From contig CAVYJN010000014.1 of the NCBI GenBank assembly GCA_963768885.1, forward strand, positions 129,997 to 193,996: 64,000 nucleotides of DNA, read 5' to 3'. Below are positions 10,278 to 16,949 of this stretch, in pieces. The translations under genes were made by a program, and so were the position numbers. How positions within the stretch are numbered: the first letter of the stretch is position 1; each line of letters opens with the position of its first letter. The DNA comes from an uncultured Solirubrobacterales bacterium. GTDB lineage: Bacteria; Actinomycetota; Thermoleophilia; Solirubrobacterales; JBBDJG01. The notes under the pieces are model-generated. The model saw only the letters and a program-made list of their open reading frames with translations, did not search any database and was not told the DNA's origin.

Positions 10278-11444
10278 ATGATCGAGCCCCACGGAGGCGA
10301 GCTGGTGGACCTGCTCGCGCGCGCCGAGAAGCGCGACGAGCTGCTCAAGGAGGCAGGTTCGCTCGACTCCGTCTCGCTCACGCCGAGGCAGGCCGCCGAT
10401 CTCGAGTTGCTGGCGGTCGGCGGCTTCAGCCCGCTGCGGGGCTTCCAGGGCTCCGAGGACTGGCGGCGCGTCGTGGACGAGATGCGGCTCGCGAACGGGC
10501 TGCCCTGGAGCATCCCGGTCACGCTCGCGACCGATGGGGAGGCGTCCGAAGGCGACCGCCTCGCGCTGCACGGCGCGGGTGGCGTCCTGCTCGGCGTGAT
10601 CGACGTGGAGGAGGTGTTCGAGCGGGATCTCGAGCGCGAGGCGCGACACGTCTACCGCACCGACGACCGGGAGCACCCCGGGGTCGCAGCCGTCTACGCG
10701 GAGGGCACGCGCTGCATCGCCGGGCCGGTGCGCGCGATCGACCTTCCGGAGCACCCCGCGGCTTTCAAGCCCTACATCCTGCCGCCGGCGGCATCCAGGG
10801 CGGCGTTCAGCGAGCGCGGCTGGAAGACCGTGGTCGGCTTCCAGACCCGCAACCCGATCCACCGCGCGCACGAGTACATCACCAAGGCTGCGCTCGAGTC
10901 CGTCGACGGACTGTTCATCCACCCGCTGGTCGGGGAGACCAAGTCCGACGACATCCCCGCCGACGTGCGGATGCGCTGCTACGAGGCCCTGATCGACCAC
11001 TACTACGTGCCCGATCACGTGATGTTGGCGGTGAACCCGGCCGCGATGCGCTACGCCGGGCCGCGCGAGGCCATCTTCCACGCCCTGATCCGGAAGAACT
11101 ACGGCTGCACCCACTTCATCGTCGGGCGCGACCACGCCGGGGTCGGGAGCTACTACGGGACCTACGACGCGCAGGAGATCTTCTCCGAGTTCGACCCCCA
11201 GGAGCTGGGGATCGAGCCGATGATGTTCGAGCACTCGTTCTACTGCAAGCTGACCAAGGGCATGGCGACCAGCAAGACGAGCCCCGCGGGTCCCGACGAC
11301 CGGGTCTTCCTCTCGGGGACGAAGGTCCGCGAGATGCTCGCGGCCGGTGAGCGCCCTCCAGAAGAGTTCACAAGACCAGAAGTTGCCGACATACTTATCA
11401 GTGCGATGCGGGAGAGCGCCGAGGGGCAGAGCGTGTCGGCCTGA
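10278..11444 (+). CDS. sat: Sulfate adenylyltransferase (ATP sulfurylase)
   Basis: [32 protein letters not shown]. Confidence 0.96.
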
Positions 11445-11471: not shown

Positions 11472-12362
11472 ATGGATCCGCTCCTGATCCCGTTCGGGTT
11501 CGGCGTTGGCTTCCTGGTCGGGATGACCGGCATGGGAGGCGGGTCGCTGATGACGCCACTCCTGATCCTCGTGTTCGGCACGTCACCCGTGACGGCCGTG
11601 GGCTCCGACATCACCTACGCCGCGGTCACGAAGAGCGTCGGCGGATGGCGCCACCTGCGCCTGAAGACGGTCAACCTGGAGCTTTCGGCCTGGCTCGCGC
11701 TGGGCAGCGTCCCGGCCGCGATCGCCGGGGTCTGGGTGATCGAGTGGCTGCACGAGCGCTATGGGAGCCAGCTCGACGACATCGTCCTGACGATGCTCGC
11801 GATCGCGCTGATCGTGGTGGGCGTGATCGTGCTCGGCCGCGCCCTGTTCGCCGTGGCCGCGCACGCCCGCGAGCGCGAGCACTTCACGCTGACGCGCGCC
11901 CACAAGGTCGCCGCCGTCGCGATCGGCGCCTCGACCGGCTTCGTGATCGGCCTCACGTCGGCGGGGTCGGGAACCCTGATCGCGGTCTTCCTGATCGCGT
12001 ACTACCGGCTGGTGCCCCGGCAGGTCGTCGGCACCGACGTCTTCCATGCGGCGGTCCTGCTCACCGCCGCGGCGATCGCCCACATCGTGGCCGGCAACGT
12101 GAACTTCGGGCTCGTGGGGGCGATCCTGATCGGGTCGATCCCGGGAGTCTGGCTCGGAAGCCATCTGATCGTGAGGCTGCCGAGCGGGTTGCTGCGCACG
12201 GCGCTCGGCGTCGTGATGATCGCCGCCTCGCTCGCGCTGTTCGACAAGGCGGGGCTCGACGTGCCGCTCGCCGCGATGCTCGCGATCCCGGCCGCCTTCG
12301 CCGCGGCGATGGTGGTGCGGAGCGTCACCCGGCGCGGCCGCGCGGTCCGCGCCACCCCCTGA
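11472..12362 (+). CDS. Sulfite exporter TauE/SafE family permease
   Basis: GMTGMGGGSLMTP; multiple TM helices; VGTDVFHA. Confidence 0.9.
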   Translation: MDPLLIPFGFGVGFLVGMTGMGGGSLMTPLLILVFGTSPVTAVGSDITYAAVTKSVGGWRHLRLKTVNLELSAWLALGSVPAAIAGVWVIEWLHERYGSQLDDIVLTMLAIALIVVGVIVLGRALFAVAAHAREREHFTLTRAHKVAAVAIGASTGFVIGLTSAGSGTLIAVFLIAYYRLVPRQVVGTDVFHAAVLLTAAAIAHIVAGNVNFGLVGAILIGSIPGVWLGSHLIVRLPSGLLRTALGVVMIAASLALFDKAGLDVPLAAMLAIPAAFAAAMVVRSVTRRGRAVRATP

Positions 12363-12373
12363 CACCGCCGCGG

Positions 12374-12467
12374 GTGTTGCTCGCACCGGCGGTGCCACGT
12401 CGCGCGGTGTTGCTCGGCGGTGTTGCCCGCCGTCAGCGGTGTTGCCGGCGGTGTTGCCGCGTGTTGC
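12374..12467. repeat. Cluster of six GTGTTGC direct repeats
   Basis: Copies at 12374, 12407, 12420, 12439, 12451, 12461 between two convergent stops. Confidence 0.8.
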
Positions 12468-12472
12468 CGGCG

Positions 12473-13162
12473 TCAGCCGAGGACTTCGGCGAGGCGCTCG
12501 AGCGTCTTCGGGCTCGGCGAGTGGTCGCCGCCCTCGATGCGCGAGACGACCGTGTGGCTGATGCCGGCCCGCTTTGCCAGCTCGCGCTGTGACAGGCCGA
12601 GCGCCTCGCGGCGCGAGGACACCAGCCTGGCGATGCCCGGGGCGAGCGTCGCGGCGGACTCGGGGGCCGTTTCGGCACCGTTCTGAAGCGTTGCGGTGGG
12701 CGCCTCCGCCGGCTCGTTCTTGGCGGTGCGCACCTTGCCGCTCCCGTTGAGGGCGGGCTCGGGCACGACCGGCGGCGCGGCCGCGGCCGGCGTGCGCCGC
12801 AGCGAGTAGTCGCCGAGCAGCGCGCGCTGTAGGACGGCCCCCGCCAGGTAGGCGACGAGACCCACCAGGAGGAGCCGCACCAGGAGCGTCCCGCTCTTGC
12901 CGAGGAGGCGCTCCGCGAACGACGACGAGTCCTCGGTCGTGGTCGTCGTCGTGCGGCTCACGCGCGGCCTCGAGGCCTGCGACTTGCCGTCGGCGGGCTC
13001 GCGCGTGCGCAGCTTCTGCGTCGTCGTCCCGACCACGAACGGGTCGCTGCGGTAGACGTCGTCCCAGTGGTCGATCGCCGGCTTGACGACGATCAGCCCG
13101 CCGAACGCCATCACGGCGATCGCAAGTGCGGCGGCGCTCCAATCGGCGATCCCTCTTCTCAT
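12473..13162 (-). CDS. Membrane-anchored XRE-family (HTH_3) transcriptional regulator
   Basis: Two hydrophobic segments, a Pro/Ala linker, and a C-terminal RREALGLSQRELAKRAGISHTVVSRIEGG...TLERLAEVL. Confidence 0.8.
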   Translation of the reverse strand: MRRGIADWSAAALAIAVMAFGGLIVVKPAIDHWDDVYRSDPFVVGTTTQKLRTREPADGKSQASRPRVSRTTTTTTEDSSSFAERLLGKSGTLLVRLLLVGLVAYLAGAVLQRALLGDYSLRRTPAAAAPPVVPEPALNGSGKVRTAKNEPAEAPTATLQNGAETAPESAATLAPGIARLVSSRREALGLSQRELAKRAGISHTVVSRIEGGDHSPSPKTLERLAEVLG

Positions 13163-13417
13163 CGCGACGAACAATTCCAGGGAGAAAGCAAAGTCGGAAG
13201 CGAATCGCGCGCCCCTGCACAGCCGATTGCGCGTGCAATTCGAGTTGCAGTTCCGACTTGTGGGTTGCGCTTCCCGGAATCGCGTGGATAGCTTCCGCAG
13301 CAGAGGGGATCTGGGTCCCTCAACACGGACGTTCCTCGCCAAGGAAATGCAGGAAAGGTGAAGGCCTCACGTGTCGACTTTGTTTCACGGCCCAGGCCCC
13401 GTAGCGCACACCGGAGC

Positions 13418-14257
13418 ATGCCGGCTCCCCTGAACTTGATTCGCGCAGCGTTCGTCGCGGCGGTCTGCGTCGCGATGCTCGCGACGTGCGCGCCTGCGGC
13501 GGTCGCGCAGGTGGCGCCGCCCGCCGACGGCAACGTGATCGTCGCGCCGGACCCCACGCCCACCCCTGAGCCTCCCGCGCCGGACCCCGCGCCCGCACCG
13601 GAACCGCCGGTCAACCCCGCGCCGCCGGAGCCGCCCGCGGACCCGGTCCCGCCGGAGCCGCCCGCCGACTCCGTTCCGGCGGACCCGCCCGCGGACAACG
13701 CGCCGCCGGCCGAGCGTCGCACCGACAGCGGCACGCCGCAGCGGGTCGACGCTCCGCGCAACGACCCGGCGACCGCTCCGCAGTCCTCGGTCCCGGCCGG
13801 CTCGAGCGACCAGTTTGCGGCGCCGGCGCAGCTGCCCGCCGGGGGCGCCGGCGAGGACTGGGCATGGACCGACCAGGGTGACGCCTTCATCGTCGGGACC
13901 GGCGGCTCGAGCAGCAGCGGGACGCACGGCGCGCTCGCGCTCTTCACCGGCGCGGGCTCGATCGCGACGGCCGCGCGCGTGCCCGCGCTCGGGTCGCGCG
14001 AGCGCGCCGCCCATGACGCCGCACAGGCCTACGCCAACGGGTCCGCAGTGACCCTGTCGGACGCCGGCAGCGGCCTGTTCGCCGGCCTCTTCGGCGGGGG
14101 CACCGGCGGTGGTGCCGGCGGCGTGTTGCTCTTGACGGTGTTCGGCATCCTGGCGGTGTTCCGCCTGGTGCGACCCGACTGGAACGAAGCTTTCCGCACA
14201 TCGACGGCCACGTGGAGGCCGTCGGCATACGTGCCTCCGATCGAGCATCCCGGCTAG
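13418..14257 (+). CDS. Pro-rich exported protein with C-terminal TM segment
   Basis: Signal peptide, PEPPADP repeats, TM VLLLTVFGILAVF, C-terminus RPSAYVPPIEHPG. Confidence 0.7.
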   Translation: MPAPLNLIRAAFVAAVCVAMLATCAPAAVAQVAPPADGNVIVAPDPTPTPEPPAPDPAPAPEPPVNPAPPEPPADPVPPEPPADSVPADPPADNAPPAERRTDSGTPQRVDAPRNDPATAPQSSVPAGSSDQFAAPAQLPAGGAGEDWAWTDQGDAFIVGTGGSSSSGTHGALALFTGAGSIATAARVPALGSRERAAHDAAQAYANGSAVTLSDAGSGLFAGLFGGGTGGGAGGVLLLTVFGILAVFRLVRPDWNEAFRTSTATWRPSAYVPPIEHPG

Positions 14258-14330
14258 CCGCCCCGGCTGGCAGATAGGGCCACGCCGGGGGTCTTTGGCC
14301 CGGCGATCAATTCGATCAGGAGGAATCACA

Positions 14331-16706
14331 GTGAAGAGCAAGCTGGCTCTCGCCGTGAGCATCCTCGCTCTGACCATCGGTGGTGCTCCGGCCGTTTCAT
14401 TCGGCCAGGACGCCGGCGCCGGGGACGACGTCACGCAGACGCAGTCCGGCACCGACTCCAACAGCACCGGTCAGACCGCGACGGACACGGCGACCACAGA
14501 TCAGAACAACACCGCAGGGGCCGAGGGCTCCGGCTCGGGCGACCGCTCCAACAACGGAGCGCTCGAGCAGGGCAACGAGGCCGACACGACTGCCGAGGGC
14601 GAGAACGAGAACGCCACCGAGCAGGGCAGCGAGCAGGAGCAGGCCGCGGGCGGCGCCGACCACGAGGGCGCAGGATCCGGGGACGTCGTCGACCAGACCC
14701 AGTCCGGCGACAACAGCAACAGCACCAGCCAATCCGCCACGGGAACGGCTACCACGGTGCAGAACAACGACAACTCGGGCACCGGCTCCTCCGAGGGCGG
14801 CGACCGCTCCAACAACGGAGAGGTCGAGCAGTCCAACGAGGCCGAGACCGAGGCGTCTGCCGAGAACGGCAACGAGACCGAGCAGGGCAACGAGCAGTCC
14901 CAGGCCGCTGGCGGCGGGGACTACGAGGGCGCCGGCTCGGGCGACGACGTAACCCAGACCCAGTCTGGCGACAACAGCAACAGCACCGAGCAGTCCGCCA
15001 CGGGGACTGCCACCACGGTCCAGAACAACTCGAACGGCGGAGGCTCGGGCAGCTCCGGCGACCGTTCGGACAACGGGGACGTGGAGCAGGGCAACGAGGC
15101 CGACACCTCGGCTGACGCCGAGAACGGCAACGAGACCGAGCAGTCCAACGAGCAGGAGCAGTCCGCGGGCGGCGGCGACTACGAGGGCGCCGGCTCCGGG
15201 GACGACGTGACCCAGACCCAGTCCGGCTCCAACTCCAACGGCACCAGCCAGTCGGCCACGGGCACCGGCACCACGACGCAGAACAACTCGAACGGCGGCG
15301 AGGGCTCCGGCTCCTCCGGCGACCGCTCGAACAACGGCGACGTGGAGCAGGGCAACGAGGCTGACACCGAGGGCTCTGCCGAGAACGAGAACGGCACCGA
15401 GCAGTCGAACGACCAGTCGCAGACGGCTGGCGGCGGCGACAGCGAGGGTGCGGGCGCGGGCGACGACGTCACCCAGACCCAGTCGGGCTCGAACTCGAAC
15501 GAGACCAGCCAGTCGGCCACGGGCACCGGCACCACGACGCAGAACAACTCGAACGGCGGCGAGGGCTCCGGCTCCTCCGGCGACCGCTCGAACAACGGCG
15601 ACGTGGAGCAGGGCAACGAGGCTGACACCGAGGGCTCTGCCGAGAACGGCAACGAGACCGAGCAGTCCAACGAGCAGGAGCAGTCGGCCGGTGGCGGAAG
15701 CCACGAGGGCGACGGCTCCGGGGACGTCGTTGACCAGACTCAGTCCGCCGACAACAGCAACGGCACCAGCCAGTCGGCCACCGGTACGGCCACCACGACG
15801 CAGTCGAACTCGAACGGCGGAGGCTCGGGCAGCTCCGGCGACCGCTCGAACAACGGCGACGTGGAGCAGGGCAACGAGGCCGACACCTCGGCCGAGGCCG
15901 AGAACGAGAACGGCACCGAGCAGTCGAACGACCAGTCGCAGACGGCTGGCGGCGGCGACAGCGAGGGTGCGGGCGCGGGCGACGACGTCTCCCAGACCCA
16001 GTCCGGCTCGAACTCGAACAGCACCGGCCAGTCGGCCACCGGCACGGCCACCACGACGCAGTCGAACGACTACGTCCCGGCCGGCACGACGATCGAGTGC
16101 GAGCGTTGCTTCAACGGCGACGTGGAGCAGGGCAACGAGGCCGACACCTCGGCTGACGCCGAGAACGGCAACGAGACCGAGCAGGGCAACGACCAGTCCC
16201 AGTCAGCGGGCGGCGGCGACCACGAAGGCGCCGGCTCCGGGGACGACGTGAGCCAGACCCAGAGCGGGTCGAACTCCAACAGCACCGACCAGAGCGCTAC
16301 CTCCACGGCCACCACGACGCAGAGCAACAGCTACGTCGGGCCCGGGGTGACGATCGTCTGCCGCCGGTGCTTCAACGGCGACGTCAGCCAGAACAACACG
16401 GCGTCGACCACCGCGAAGTCCAACAACAAGAACAGCACCAAGCAGTCCAACGACCAGGACCAGTCGGCCGGCCAGGCACAGGAGGAAGAGGGCGAGGAGC
16501 CCGCGCCTGTGACGCCCCCGGTCACGACGACGGTCGTCGTGGTCCACCACTACGTGGCCTCGCCGGCGCCTGCCGCGAAGTCCACGGTCACGAAGGCCAA
16601 GAGCAAGAAGTGCAAGTGCGCCAAGAAGAGCAAGAAGAGCAAGAAGGCCAAGAAGCGGTCCGGCAAGGTCAAGGGCCAGGTCAAGTGCGTTCGGCGGTCC
16701 TGCTAG
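14331..16706 (+). CDS. Secreted Gln/Asn/Ser/Thr/Glu-rich tandem-repeat protein (amyloid/beta-fibre-like)
   Basis: AGGAGG RBS plus GTG; signal peptide; eight ~86-aa repeats; two CxxC; Lys/Cys-rich C-terminal tail. Confidence 0.85.
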   Translation: MKSKLALAVSILALTIGGAPAVSFGQDAGAGDDVTQTQSGTDSNSTGQTATDTATTDQNNTAGAEGSGSGDRSNNGALEQGNEADTTAEGENENATEQGSEQEQAAGGADHEGAGSGDVVDQTQSGDNSNSTSQSATGTATTVQNNDNSGTGSSEGGDRSNNGEVEQSNEAETEASAENGNETEQGNEQSQAAGGGDYEGAGSGDDVTQTQSGDNSNSTEQSATGTATTVQNNSNGGGSGSSGDRSDNGDVEQGNEADTSADAENGNETEQSNEQEQSAGGGDYEGAGSGDDVTQTQSGSNSNGTSQSATGTGTTTQNNSNGGEGSGSSGDRSNNGDVEQGNEADTEGSAENENGTEQSNDQSQTAGGGDSEGAGAGDDVTQTQSGSNSNETSQSATGTGTTTQNNSNGGEGSGSSGDRSNNGDVEQGNEADTEGSAENGNETEQSNEQEQSAGGGSHEGDGSGDVVDQTQSADNSNGTSQSATGTATTTQSNSNGGGSGSSGDRSNNGDVEQGNEADTSAEAENENGTEQSNDQSQTAGGGDSEGAGAGDDVSQTQSGSNSNSTGQSATGTATTTQSNDYVPAGTTIECERCFNGDVEQGNEADTSADAENGNETEQGNDQSQSAGGGDHEGAGSGDDVSQTQSGSNSNSTDQSATSTATTTQSNSYVGPGVTIVCRRCFNGDVSQNNTASTTAKSNNKNSTKQSNDQDQSAGQAQEEEGEEPAPVTPPVTTTVVVVHHYVASPAPAAKSTVTKAKSKKCKCAKKSKKSKKAKKRSGKVKGQVKCVRRSC
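14415..16470 (+). repeat. Eight intragenic tandem repeats of ~258-261 bp
   Basis: Recurring GDDVTQTQSG...NNGDVEQGNEADT...EQSNEQEQSAGGG units, near-identical at DNA level in the middle copies. Confidence 0.92.
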
Positions 16707-16713
16707 CGCGCAC

Positions 16714-16898
16714 GCCGATGACAAGCGATGGAAGAAATCGAGAAGGAGTGATGTCTATCGGCTAAGGGACGAAACTCCGGGCCGGGCAAAGGCAGGGAAA
16801 AAGCTCGCGCCGGCCCGGAGACCGAATGAGTGAGGCGCCTCAACCCAGAGAGCGCGCCTCGAAGGCTTCGATGCCCGCCCCACCCGGGGCGGGCATCG
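16714..16898 (+). ncRNA. Candidate structured RNA or 3' UTR with four hairpins
   Basis: Stems GCCGATGACA/TGTCTATCGGC, CTCCGGGCCGG/CCGGCCCGGAG, GAGGCGC/GCGCCTC, CGATGCCCGCCC/GGGCGGGCATCG with purine-rich loops. Confidence 0.35.
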
Positions 16899-16949
16899 GC
16901 CTGCCGCGGCCCCGAGCGATCCGGGGGCCGCCGATATAGTCCGGCGCCG

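Follow-up and report, generated by a model that had tools for sequence, protein, structure and literature searches.

We analyzed a stretch of DNA of 64,000 nucleotides (the window) from an uncultured Solirubrobacterales bacterium (GTDB lineage Bacteria; Actinomycetota; Thermoleophilia; Solirubrobacterales; JBBDJG01; GenBank assembly GCA_963768885.1, contig CAVYJN010000014.1, positions 129,997 to 193,996 of the forward strand). The subject of this report is a group of three genes at window positions 12363–16949. A gene on the minus strand (12473–13162) codes for a regulator of the XRE type with two transmembrane (TM) segments. Divergent from it, on the plus strand, lie a gene for a proline-rich exported membrane protein that we call ProTM (13418–14257) and a gene for a secreted repeat protein of 791 residues (14331–16706). 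The upstream flank is devoted to sulfate assimilation (a PAPS reductase-like protein, ATP sulfurylase at 10278–11444, TauE at 11472–12362), and the downstream flank starts with a biotin-carboxylase gene from about 16950. A preliminary description of this DNA, made from the sequence alone, had reported this three-gene layout together with unusual structure in all four intergenic spaces. We could confirm the genes, and each of the spaces does contain repeat, palindrome, or hairpin features.

The Repeat Protein and Its Family

The repeat gene starts with a GTG codon at 14331, located 8 nt past the sequence AGGAGG. The encoded protein begins with a signal-like segment, which is the single hydrophobic segment detected by a hydropathy scan. 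This segment is followed by eight units, a linker of acidic character, a short strand of Thr and Val, and a basic tail rich in Lys and Cys. The units (14406–16484, plus strand) were delimited by eye and by regular expression, and Tandem Repeats Finder describes the same gene with a period of 261 nt (7.4 copies, 79% matches, score 1909). Asn and Gln account for 20.6% of the repeat region and Asp and Glu for 17.8%, while Val contributes 3.4% and other hydrophobic residues are almost absent. The mature protein contains 128 Asp and Glu versus 32 Lys and Arg, and is the most hydrophilic variant seen among the homologues.

An alignment of 43 units from the window and from nine loci of the same taxonomic family (10 genomes; hereafter, family refers to the taxonomic family of the source organism where loci or genomes are concerned) contains nine invariant columns, all of which are Gln or Asn (Q13, N19, Q23, N35, Q56, N68, Q74, Q78, Q80). 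Near-invariant columns hold Gln, Asn, Thr, Ala, or Gly, and those with Gln, Asn, Thr, or Ala keep an i,i+2 spacing along two stretches of about 30 residues. The positions between these ladder columns are occupied by Asp, Glu, Ser, or Thr. The same Gln/Asn ladder recurs in the units of two distant genomes and in an alignment of 60 proteins. What had initially been described as an eight-repeat, Gln/Asn-rich secreted protein is hence confirmed as a protein of eight 86–87-residue units with a signal-like N-terminus and a curli-like ladder of Gln and Asn at alternate positions. In the last two units of the window protein only, a CxxC loop (…ECERCF…, …VCRRCF…; residues ∼580–600 and ∼667–690, window 16070–16400) replaces a Gly/Ser loop. 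Every unit has such a CxxC loop in other genera of the family, and the Pfam family DUF7685 touches it with an E value of 0.025, short of the cut-off.

A profile made from the 43-unit alignment and scored against 1.84 billion representative sequences detected 567 clusters at E ≤ 1e-3, 343 at E ≤ 1e-10, and 110 at E ≤ 1e-30. The source genome contains one copy of the repeat protein. Among 60 relatives searched, 13 of the 17 same-family genomes encode it, and the 43 genomes from other families of the order yielded one marginal match (5.3e-4). Since an even sample of 400 other Actinomycetota genomes contained only 2 carriers despite the 567 clusters, we describe the protein family as large yet patchy. 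A degenerate DNA pattern derived from the invariant columns matched 31 stretches in species-representative genomes; these matches come from Solirubrobacterales, Baekduia, Acidimicrobiia, "Actinomycetes", and unclassified metagenome-assembled genomes (MAGs) of Actinomycetota. A word-based database search returned 15 proteins without any Pfam family and with no name other than "hypothetical protein". The units of these homologues are ∼85 residues long, their loops are more hydrophobic, and Cys motifs (CxxC, CxC) lie between one unit and the next.

When the window proteins and eight repeat homologues were compared with Pfam and NCBIfam, the repeat protein and these homologues gave only sub-threshold noise. 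A profile search of PDB sequences with the repeat unit found no match at E ≤ 10, and the best score in the ESM Atlas was 0.85, below the 0.9 lead level. We found no paper on this repeat family, and none of the papers listed by a literature search that combined functional amyloid with Solirubrobacter, Thermoleophilia, curli-like, or Acidimicrobiia contains the term. Judged by these comparisons, the repeat unit defines a large family without described relatives in Pfam, NCBIfam, or PDB. The preliminary description had stated that the locus matches no recognized system, and this statement is borne out by the lack of a Pfam or NCBIfam family for both the repeat protein and ProTM, and by the lack of a PDB match for the former. 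Membership of the repeat protein in a known family, which the same description had named as an argument against itself, is not what we found by Pfam, NCBIfam, the PDB profile search, or the Foldseek comparison given below.

Several individual relatives deserve mention. The sole match on a contig labeled as belonging outside Actinomycetota (Acidobacteriota; L070, positions 1–412) is a single one at a contig edge and may be a binning error. Both this locus and L050 (2–275) encode the last unit of a P0005-like relative; a KDKDDRDH-type repeat comes before it, which is long in L070 and reduced to a short remnant in L050. The largest open frame, in an Actinomycetota MAG (L074, 1–6264; cut at the locus start), spans at least 2088 residues with 22 unit matches, and a Baekduia MAG (L066, 1–2560; also cut at the locus start) encodes at least 12 units of divergent style. 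Repeat genes that are broken across two or three frames (L018, L022, L024, L025) probably reflect assembly or consensus errors within repeats and not real pseudogenes. In one metagenomic protein (P0014, 975 residues), a long low-complexity region of the "PVTDA" type continues in frame into the repeat protein, likely by run-through of the gene call from the upstream partner region.

ProTM and the Two-Gene Cassette

ProTM consists of 279 residues, with a hydrophobic segment at positions 11–29 that is followed by A-V-A-Q and resembles a signal peptide, and a second, transmembrane segment at 233–251. The region between them contains a Pro-rich stretch, a moderately conserved Gly/Ser/Ala segment, and a run of Gly before the TM segment. 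The protein belongs to no Pfam or NCBIfam family, and none of its 44 database matches, which include ProTM itself, has a Pfam family. Homologues begin with a similar hydrophobic N-terminus. In an alignment of 28 of them, with identities to the window protein down to 32%, all 11 invariant columns are located within the last 21 residues (F259, W266, P268, S269, Y271, P273, P274, I275, E276, P278, G279). The tail behind the TM segment comprises 28–31 residues in the family and ends with …PPIE[H/R/L/S]PG-stop in 14 of 14 family loci. The last 21 codons (14192–14254, plus strand) encode this conserved peptide and also contain the 5′ arm of a predicted helix that would mask the Shine–Dalgarno sequence of the repeat gene. 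The invariant residues are specified by synonymous codons (Pro by CCA/CCG, Tyr by TAC/TAT, Pro by CCC/CCG/CCT, Gly by GGC/GGT), and in 13 family loci the last 14 codons have a ratio of nonsynonymous to synonymous polymorphism (pN/pS) of 0.33. We therefore conclude that the tail is selected as a peptide and not as RNA alone.

According to tblastn searches, 13 of 13 family loci have ProTM directly 5′ of the repeat gene. Because the cys and acc flanks are common to these loci as well, we extended the comparison to loci from outside the family. Nine of these could be assessed (L044, L045, L047, L052, L058, L059, L068, L069, and L072, the last being close to the G276 cassette), and in all nine the upstream open reading frame (ORF) ends with a TM segment, 23–31 residues, and the motif [E/G/D]-x-P-G-stop. 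Six more are cut at the locus end (L050, L056, L065, L066, L070, L074), and L053, where the repeat ORFs are in fragments and a kinase-like ORF lies upstream, was not assessable either. The non-family cassettes come from Acidimicrobiia, "Actinomycetes", and unclassified Actinomycetota MAGs. Seven of the assessable loci (L047, L052, L058, L059, L068, L069, L072) have tails of 23–28 residues that end with …ERPG, …GEPG, or …GRPG immediately before the stop codon. In genome G412 the cassette is inserted between pentose-phosphate/pgi-like and phosphatidyltransferase-like ORFs, in G276 between panB-like and rpsF-ssb-rpsR-rplI-like ORFs. Both upstream genes follow the plan of export signal, low-complexity region, TM segment, and short tail, and both end with …ERPG-stop. 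Taken together, 23 of 23 cassettes have Pro-Gly-stop, with a stop codon that can be TAG, TAA, or TGA, and the upstream ORFs range from 279 to 480 residues.

A Pfam analysis of ten neighbors of five distant cassettes revealed no recurrent third gene; these neighbors were cyclase-AAA-TPR, ParA-like, BNR, ACT, ABC transporter, MarR, hydrolase, UppS, and cNMP-binding proteins. Since the pair recurs in other classes amid unrelated neighbors, we consider ProTM a true partner of the repeat gene, and by gene order and content the two constitute a conserved, self-contained cassette in several classes of Actinomycetota. The proposal that all three genes form a module can be retained for ProTM and the repeat gene, which co-occur in other classes, and is not supported for the XRE gene, which we found in three genera only. 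The unrelated surroundings of distant cassettes also led us to reject a linkage to the cys operon. Likewise, we rejected a sortase-type or other C-terminal sorting signal on ProTM in view of the 23–31-residue tail behind the TM segment and its conserved end motif, which set the protein apart from the usual layout of such signals. A structure prediction for a complex between the ProTM ectodomain (residues 125–235) and the repeat protein's C-terminal portion (residues 545–791, units 7 and 8 and tail) gave a score of 0.00 (mark 0.32), which is evidence neither way. Elsewhere in the source genome (contig C6, 317769–318180), a CorA-like ORF with a GMN motif ends with a TM segment, a short tail, and …EAPG-stop, which is probably a coincidence.

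RNA Structure between ProTM and the Repeat Gene

The distance from the ProTM stop to the start of the repeat gene is 65–82 nt in all 20 cassettes measured. In the window, this spacer comprises 73 nt (14258–14330, plus strand) of structured RNA that includes a hairpin (14283–14289/14299–14305). We folded each cassette from stop-75 to start+15 using RNAfold. In 19 of the 20 minimum free energy (MFE) folds, the Shine–Dalgarno sequence of the repeat gene pairs with nucleotides −17 to −32 before the ProTM stop; the exception is L052, where it pairs with +12 to +16. The 5′ arm of the window helix, CCUCCGAUCGA (14234–14244, plus strand), contains the anti-Shine–Dalgarno sequence CCUCC and GAUCGA within the Pro-Pro-Ile-Glu codons. 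It pairs with UCGAUC-A-GGAGG (14312–14323, plus strand), in which a bulged A precedes the GGAGG of the Shine–Dalgarno sequence.

The arms of this predicted helix vary between lineages yet remain complementary. For 14 nonredundant loci, cognate arms pair with −21.8 kcal/mol versus −16.7 kcal/mol for non-cognate arms, and none of 20000 permutations was as good (p ∼ 5e-5). A covariance model (R1) built from seven family sequences recovered all 14 family loci at E ≤ 1.3e-12; distant cassettes are reached poorly by this model (L058 with E 0.003, L047 with E 0.49, others not found). In the R1 alignment 87.8% of the cells are paired, versus 27–46% if the partners are slid. Of 26 base pairs, 8 change on both sides, versus 2.2 ± 1.2 in shuffled alignments, and 0 of 500 shuffles reach 8. 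These pair counts were taken from the covariance model instead of a MAFFT alignment of the spacers, which had put the Shine–Dalgarno sequence in the wrong place.

A second local hairpin (CGACGGCC … GGCCGUCG) is predicted within the codons for …STATWRPS… in the ProTM tail (14180–14225). Of the 13 family loci that we folded, most show it in their MFE structure. The distant cassettes have a different hairpin, which covers the codons for R-W-L-R-L.

Predicted Fold of the Repeat Protein

AlphaFold2 modeling of the window protein from an alignment of 60 sequences produced a structure with a mean pLDDT of 65.5 and a pTM of 0.56. Each unit contributes two strands of about 30 residues to this model, which gives 16 strands in all; pLDDT values are 70–87 in the strands, lower in the loops, and below 50 in the C-terminus (residues 717–791). 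The five models of this protein range from 48.8 to 65.5. A 482-residue homologue from G412, which represents another family of the phylum, was modeled from 70 sequences with a mean pLDDT of 75.8 and a pTM of 0.69. This second model, in which 198 residues score at least 90, likewise shows two strands per unit, and in addition a three-residue strand in the first loop. A Foldseek search of the PDB with both models returned no match at E ≤ 0.001, and TM-scores did not exceed 0.08. The weak rows are headed for both models by CsgA from Pontibacter (E 0.75 for the window protein, 0.021 for the G412 protein), with FapC (9u4u) second or third (E 3.8 and 0.34); further weak rows are mostly parallel β-helices.

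These models fit a repeat body of stacked polar ladders, a β-solenoid or "arcade" with very long rungs. We read them in this way because the units present a conserved Gln/Asn/Thr/Ala face opposite an acidic face, and because Gln and Asn are invariant in every unit. Conserved Gln and Asn on one face of every repeat are the signature of stacked ladders in β-solenoids and amyloids. The rungs of known solenoids are several times shorter than those modeled here. Fibre or amyloid formation by the repeat protein is plausible, with the Gln/Asn ladder and the all-β models as indirect evidence. Little is known about functional amyloids and β-solenoid fibres in monoderm soil bacteria. Should the models prove correct, the cassette would encode a β architecture that is held together almost wholly by polar ladders, which would bear on polar-zipper folding and on protein materials.

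The XRE Regulator

Counted from the Met that is common to all orthologues, the XRE protein consists of 229 residues. Its C-terminus contains a helix-turn-helix (HTH) domain of the Cro/C1 type (Pfam HTH_3, E 6.1e-15; HTH_31, E 4.3e-13; both above their cut-offs), and a Kyte–Doolittle scan located hydrophobic 19-mers at residues 8–26 and 93–111. Full-length homologues with the TM segments are encoded in 10 of the 17 same-family genomes (three genera; 9 of 16 without G008). The 43 genomes from other families of the order contain none, and the matches there span the HTH domain only. By tblastn, the XRE gene adjoins the cassette in 9 of 13 family loci, and in all nine XRE genomes that also hold the cassette, it is adjacent. 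In G011 (L021), the trio is located outside the cys–acc neighborhood with the XRE gene downstream of the repeat gene. Four genomes from two genera (G007, G009, G012, G016) retain the cassette, and no XRE gene was found in them, nor at any distant cassette. Because 4 of 13 family loci and every distant cassette lack it, the XRE gene is, by its distribution, a lineage-specific addition beside the cassette in three genera of the family. A three-gene module with its own regulation, as suggested in the preliminary description, is not supported, given an XRE gene confined to 10 of 17 family genomes and absent from 43 genomes of other families.

The divergent promoter region between the XRE gene and ProTM (13163–13417) contains TTGCG-cg-TGCAA, TGCAA-n6-TTGCA, and GGTTGCGC motifs, a dip in G+C content to 0.60, and a 9-nt perfect inverted repeat (13191–13199/13251–13259). 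A MAFFT alignment of six divergent spacers from the same genus showed that the TTGC/GCAA palindromes and the GGTTGCGC motif are conserved; these palindromes are candidate operators. The convergent spacer from the TauE stop to the XRE stop (12363–12472) contains about seven direct repeats of the GGTGTTGC type, identified by repeat search and Tandem Repeats Finder. Of the 107 exact GGTGTTGC copies that the genome (3.5 Mb) contains, six are found in this spacer. Orthologous convergent spacers contain scattered GTGTTGC/GCAAC motifs with 0–2 exact GGTGTTGC copies each and no tandem array. The GGTGTTGC repeat and the palindromes of the divergent promoter have TTGC in common. A regulatory link between the XRE protein and the cassette, restricted to these genera, is plausible from these patterns.

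Proposed Mechanism and Alternatives

We propose that the locus contains a coupled two-gene cassette for an exported ladder protein, with a pausing tail on the first gene product, an explanation to which we attribute slightly better than even chances. The product of the second gene would be exported by Sec and would consist of 86-residue units with two β-strands of ∼30 residues each. One face of these strands would present the conserved Gln/Asn/Thr/Ala ladder, and the other would be acidic or rich in hydroxyl groups. Stacking of the units would create a large and very acidic β-solenoid-like ("polar zipper") body, and the protein would most likely be the subunit from which a fibre or sheet is built, either extracellular or at the cell surface. 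The Lys/Cys-rich basic tail seen in this family could tie the protein to the envelope or to the next subunit. The first gene would encode an exported, membrane-anchored low-complexity protein, the conserved part of which is the C-terminal TM segment with a cytoplasmic tail of 23–31 residues. Its last ∼10 codons would pair with the Shine–Dalgarno region of the second gene across the structured spacer of 65–82 nt. Because a ribosome on these codons must melt the helix, the ribosome binding site of the repeat gene would be open mainly as ProTM ends, and the second gene would be translated in vivo mainly while a ribosome finishes the first. A ribosome that melts an upstream helix to open a downstream binding site is the established logic of translational coupling. 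At this point, the nascent ProTM, the signal peptide of which would have been engaged well before, would tether the mRNA at the membrane, and its conserved tail would probably slow termination or elongation in the manner of SecM/MifM-type monitors.

Pausing was considered in view of the conserved end peptide, the fixed position of the stop codon after Pro-Gly, the tunnel-length distance from TM segment to stop, and the masked Shine–Dalgarno sequence. These are features by which monitoring substrates such as SecM, MifM, and ApcA are recognized (Fujiwara et al., bioRxiv 10.1101/2023.09.02.556018). Pausing at or near termination is a tentative element of the proposal, with a probability that we would place rather below even. 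The early guess that ProTM may be an export monitor fits both the conserved tail and the masking of the Shine–Dalgarno sequence. Overall, the preliminary interpretation is partly supported: the locus contains a new and widespread two-gene cassette in which a repeat protein that is curli-like in logic and unrelated in sequence is accompanied by a leader-like membrane protein that would gate its translation. A bolder version of this idea, which we judge improbable, is a widely distributed "self-licensed" actinobacterial functional amyloid: a polar-zipper β-solenoid with 86-residue rungs, made only at the membrane by means of a termination-stalling, force-sensitive [E/D/G]-x-Pro-Gly-stop tail. 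If true, it would represent a new β-solenoid architecture with a Gln/Asn/Thr/Ala core and an acidic shell in place of a hydrophobic core, and the first case in which a monitoring substrate controls a dangerous cargo instead of the secretion machinery.

Several observations weigh against our proposal. The alignment behind the pair counts was itself fitted to the structure model, and dinucleotide-shuffled versions of the last 36 nt still pair 0.45 of the Shine–Dalgarno bases on average, versus 0.79 for the native sequences. Pairing of the Shine–Dalgarno sequence with a C-rich ORF end is hence partly compositional, and the argument for the helix rests on covariation, not on pairing itself. Part of the tail conservation may also be RNA-driven, because the CCCGG of the Pro-Gly codons is located in local hairpins. 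Pro-Gly-stop is not depleted in the source genome: by crude ORF calls, 25 ORFs end in this way versus 14.5 expected (ORF set after GC2 filter, without ProTM itself), which gives no sign that the motif alone impedes translation. It is also hard to see why a secretion monitor would act on a cargo in place of the machinery for secretion. As for the repeat protein, the models at hand do not separate parallel stacking (solenoid) from an antiparallel meander, the window model is of moderate confidence (pLDDT 65.5), and a composition with 3.4% Val and scarce hydrophobic residues would equally suit disorder. Finally, we infer fibre formation, export, and coupling from the sequence.

The repeat protein might instead be a monomeric or sheet-forming surface coat that does not polymerize into fibres, an idea that we find doubtful. 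Its flat acidic and hydroxyl-rich faces could bind cations, mineral, or water, the basic tail would hold the protein at the envelope, and its role would be hydration or protection from desiccation, metal buffering, or interaction with mineral or ice. The excess of Asp and Glu over Lys and Arg (128 versus 32; computed pI ∼4) and the opposite charge of the C-terminal tail (pI 10.7) would suit such a coat, as would the Cys motifs (CxxC, CxC) between units of many homologues, the soil or sediment source of every metagenome that contains the stretch, and AlphaFold2 strands that are long and flat, unlike a compact solenoid of known type. However, the strict conservation of Gln and Asn on one face of each unit is the mark of stacked ladders, selection is strongest on this face and not on the acidic one, and the Pfam scan of the window protein detected no known ion-binding motif. 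If, on the other hand, the repeat region were an intrinsically disordered acidic spacer or "brush", the AlphaFold2 strands would be an artefact of the repeat alignment. The very low hydrophobicity of the window protein, the moderate pLDDT of its five models (48.8–65.5), and the low recognition by the ESM Atlas (best 0.85) would all be expected in this case. Yet disorder is unlikely because of positional conservation, with invariant residues at alternate positions across 43 units, 10 genomes, and 60–70 divergent proteins. As more hydrophobic homologues also give strand pLDDT values of 94–96, we assign disorder a very slim chance.

Turning to gene expression, the two genes could be linked by plain translational coupling without programmed pausing, for the sake of stoichiometry or membrane-localized synthesis. 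In this scenario the tail would be conserved through a universal partner (a protease, or the Sec/YidC machinery) or through RNA constraint. Neither the helix nor its covariation requires pausing, and the frequency of Pro-Gly-stop in the genome is no obstacle to this account. Some tail residues could be fixed by the RNA, because the Pro-Pro/Ser-Leu and Glu codons coincide with the anti-Shine–Dalgarno sequence and with the UCGAG of the helix. In the available portion of a recent survey of translation-impeding motifs, RPG has no occurrence (EMBO J 2025, PMC12992588). On the other side, the stop codon follows Pro-Gly directly in 23 of 23 cassettes although its identity varies, the 23–31 residues from TM segment to stop correspond to about one length of the exit tunnel, and synonymous codons are used for the invariant residues. 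Moreover, a binding partner would need to be common to lineages that have no other neighboring genes in common. We regard coupling without pausing as rather unlikely. Somewhat more credible to us, albeit short of even chances, is the view of the preliminary description that the membrane-bound XRE protein is a dedicated regulator of fibre production in a three-gene system. Adjacency in 9 of 13 family loci, the persistence of this adjacency in G011 where the trio has moved and its order has changed, the restriction of full-length XRE homologues to these genomes among the 60 relatives searched, and the conserved palindromes in the divergent promoter all speak for this view. Against it stand the two genera in which G007, G009, G012, and G016 hold the cassette with no XRE gene found, and the distant cassettes, which have no XRE gene and are accompanied by MarR, DeoR-like, or kinase genes instead.

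Relation to Described Systems

Curli (CsgA and CsgB, with CsgE, CsgF, and CsgG) resemble the cassette in several respects: both systems rely on secreted imperfect repeats with alternate Gln and Asn residues as the conserved face, both have an accessory gene alongside, and CsgA is the protein at the top of the weak Foldseek rows. Curli repeats are ∼20 residues long. The cassette differs from them by its monoderm host, by units of 86 residues with two ∼30-residue strands, and by a strongly acidic surface. The Curlin_rpt family (PF07012) was detected neither in the repeat protein (E ≤ 0.1) nor in eight homologues (E ≤ 1), nor in the source genome at E ≤ 0.01 (87% complete; an E. coli control was found). 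CsgG (PF03783) was not found in this 87%-complete genome either, whereas 4 of 14 named genomes gave a control match. As neither Curlin_rpt nor CsgG was found, we do not count the cassette as a member of the curli system. The idea of a relative of functional amyloids without known system survives as far as the curli-like logic of the Gln/Asn ladder is concerned, and does not extend to curli proper. The Fap system (FapC) also uses a repeat-based secreted subunit, and its Foldseek rows are nonsignificant. Fap depends on an outer-membrane exporter, which a monoderm lacks. Chaplins and rodlins of Streptomyces are also actinobacterial surface amyloids. These are small hydrophobic proteins, unlike the large, acidic, and polar repeat protein.

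ProTM invites comparison with monitoring substrates (SecM-secA, MifM-yidC2, VemP, ApcA/ApdA/ApdP). In both cases an upstream ORF carries an N-terminal export signal and a conserved C-terminus, and, according to our in silico folds, the Shine–Dalgarno sequence of the downstream gene is held in a stem that could be opened by the ribosome that ends the upstream ORF. The differences are that ProTM precedes a gene for secreted cargo and not sec or yidC, that ORFs of the ProTM type are long (279–480 residues) with a second TM segment just 23–31 residues before the end, and that the motif of their putative arrest tail is [E/D/G]-x-P-G-stop and not RAPP-like. The N-terminal signal of ProTM is more than 200 residues from the end. 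One study reports that actinobacterial ApcA carries R-A-P-G and that some arrests are stop-codon dependent, with NSP-stop, NAP-stop, and DGMK-stop as examples of stop-dependent upstream ORFs (Fujiwara et al., bioRxiv 10.1101/2023.09.02.556018). Small RAPP/RGPP proteins in Streptomyces lividans precede diverse genes, including genes unrelated to secretion; their motif is unlike that of ProTM, and the accessible part of this source mentions no repeat protein as a target (Fujiwara et al., EMBO J 2025, PMC12992588). Among the matches listed in a literature search for a connection between arrest peptides and functional amyloid, we found unrelated work only, judged by titles and the opening of the abstracts.

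The cassette also shares features with classical translational coupling, in that the downstream ribosome binding site is paired with upstream coding sequence and would be opened by the translating ribosome. Long-range sequestration of Shine–Dalgarno sequences with such coupling is known from phage MS2 and from ribosomal-protein operons. What sets the cassette apart from these examples is a 5′ arm confined to the last ∼10 codons, together with a terminal peptide and a spacer length that are both conserved. The cassette may represent a natural case in which a possibly aggregation-prone secreted protein is tied to the completion of a membrane protein by a covarying helix and a nascent tail. With it, one can test directly whether cargo proteins are gated by arrest or pausing peptides.

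Transcripts and Minor Features

The stretch is present in soil and sediment metagenome runs and in six soil metatranscriptome runs. In 4 of 4 soil metatranscriptome runs that we aligned, contigs matched the repeat gene, many with at least 99% identity, which suggests that this gene is used in nature. Contigs from RNA runs extend from ∼14211 to 16807, and a few of them bridge the spacer, such as those at 14215–14338 (4 differences) and 14276–14486. Cover is next to nil over ProTM (13418–14070), the XRE gene, and accA in four runs; since contigs cannot rank genes, we do not count this as a finding. RNA cover that is confined to one gene among its flanks gives a weak hint of transcription, to which carry-over of DNA may contribute.

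A promoter consensus scan of the window returned no promoter-like site, and a terminator scan returned 7 terminator-like sites versus 3.1 ± 1.7 in shuffled sequences, none of them within the intergenic spaces. The best result of an Rfam scan (BTH_s19, E 0.057) is far below the gathering score, and nothing was significant. Structure above chance was assessed for the spacer between ProTM and the repeat gene (14258–14330, by covariation) and, roughly, for the convergent spacer (12363–12472, by local clustering). Behind the repeat gene (16707–16949), a repeat search identified two perfect, GC-rich hairpins on the plus strand, one of 11 bp with a 24-nt loop (16775–16785/16810–16820) and one of 13 bp with a 4-nt loop (16869–16881/16886–16898). 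Neither has a run of T, and a role as terminator is conceivable from their position. RNA contigs become sparse near 16772–16807, close to these hairpins.

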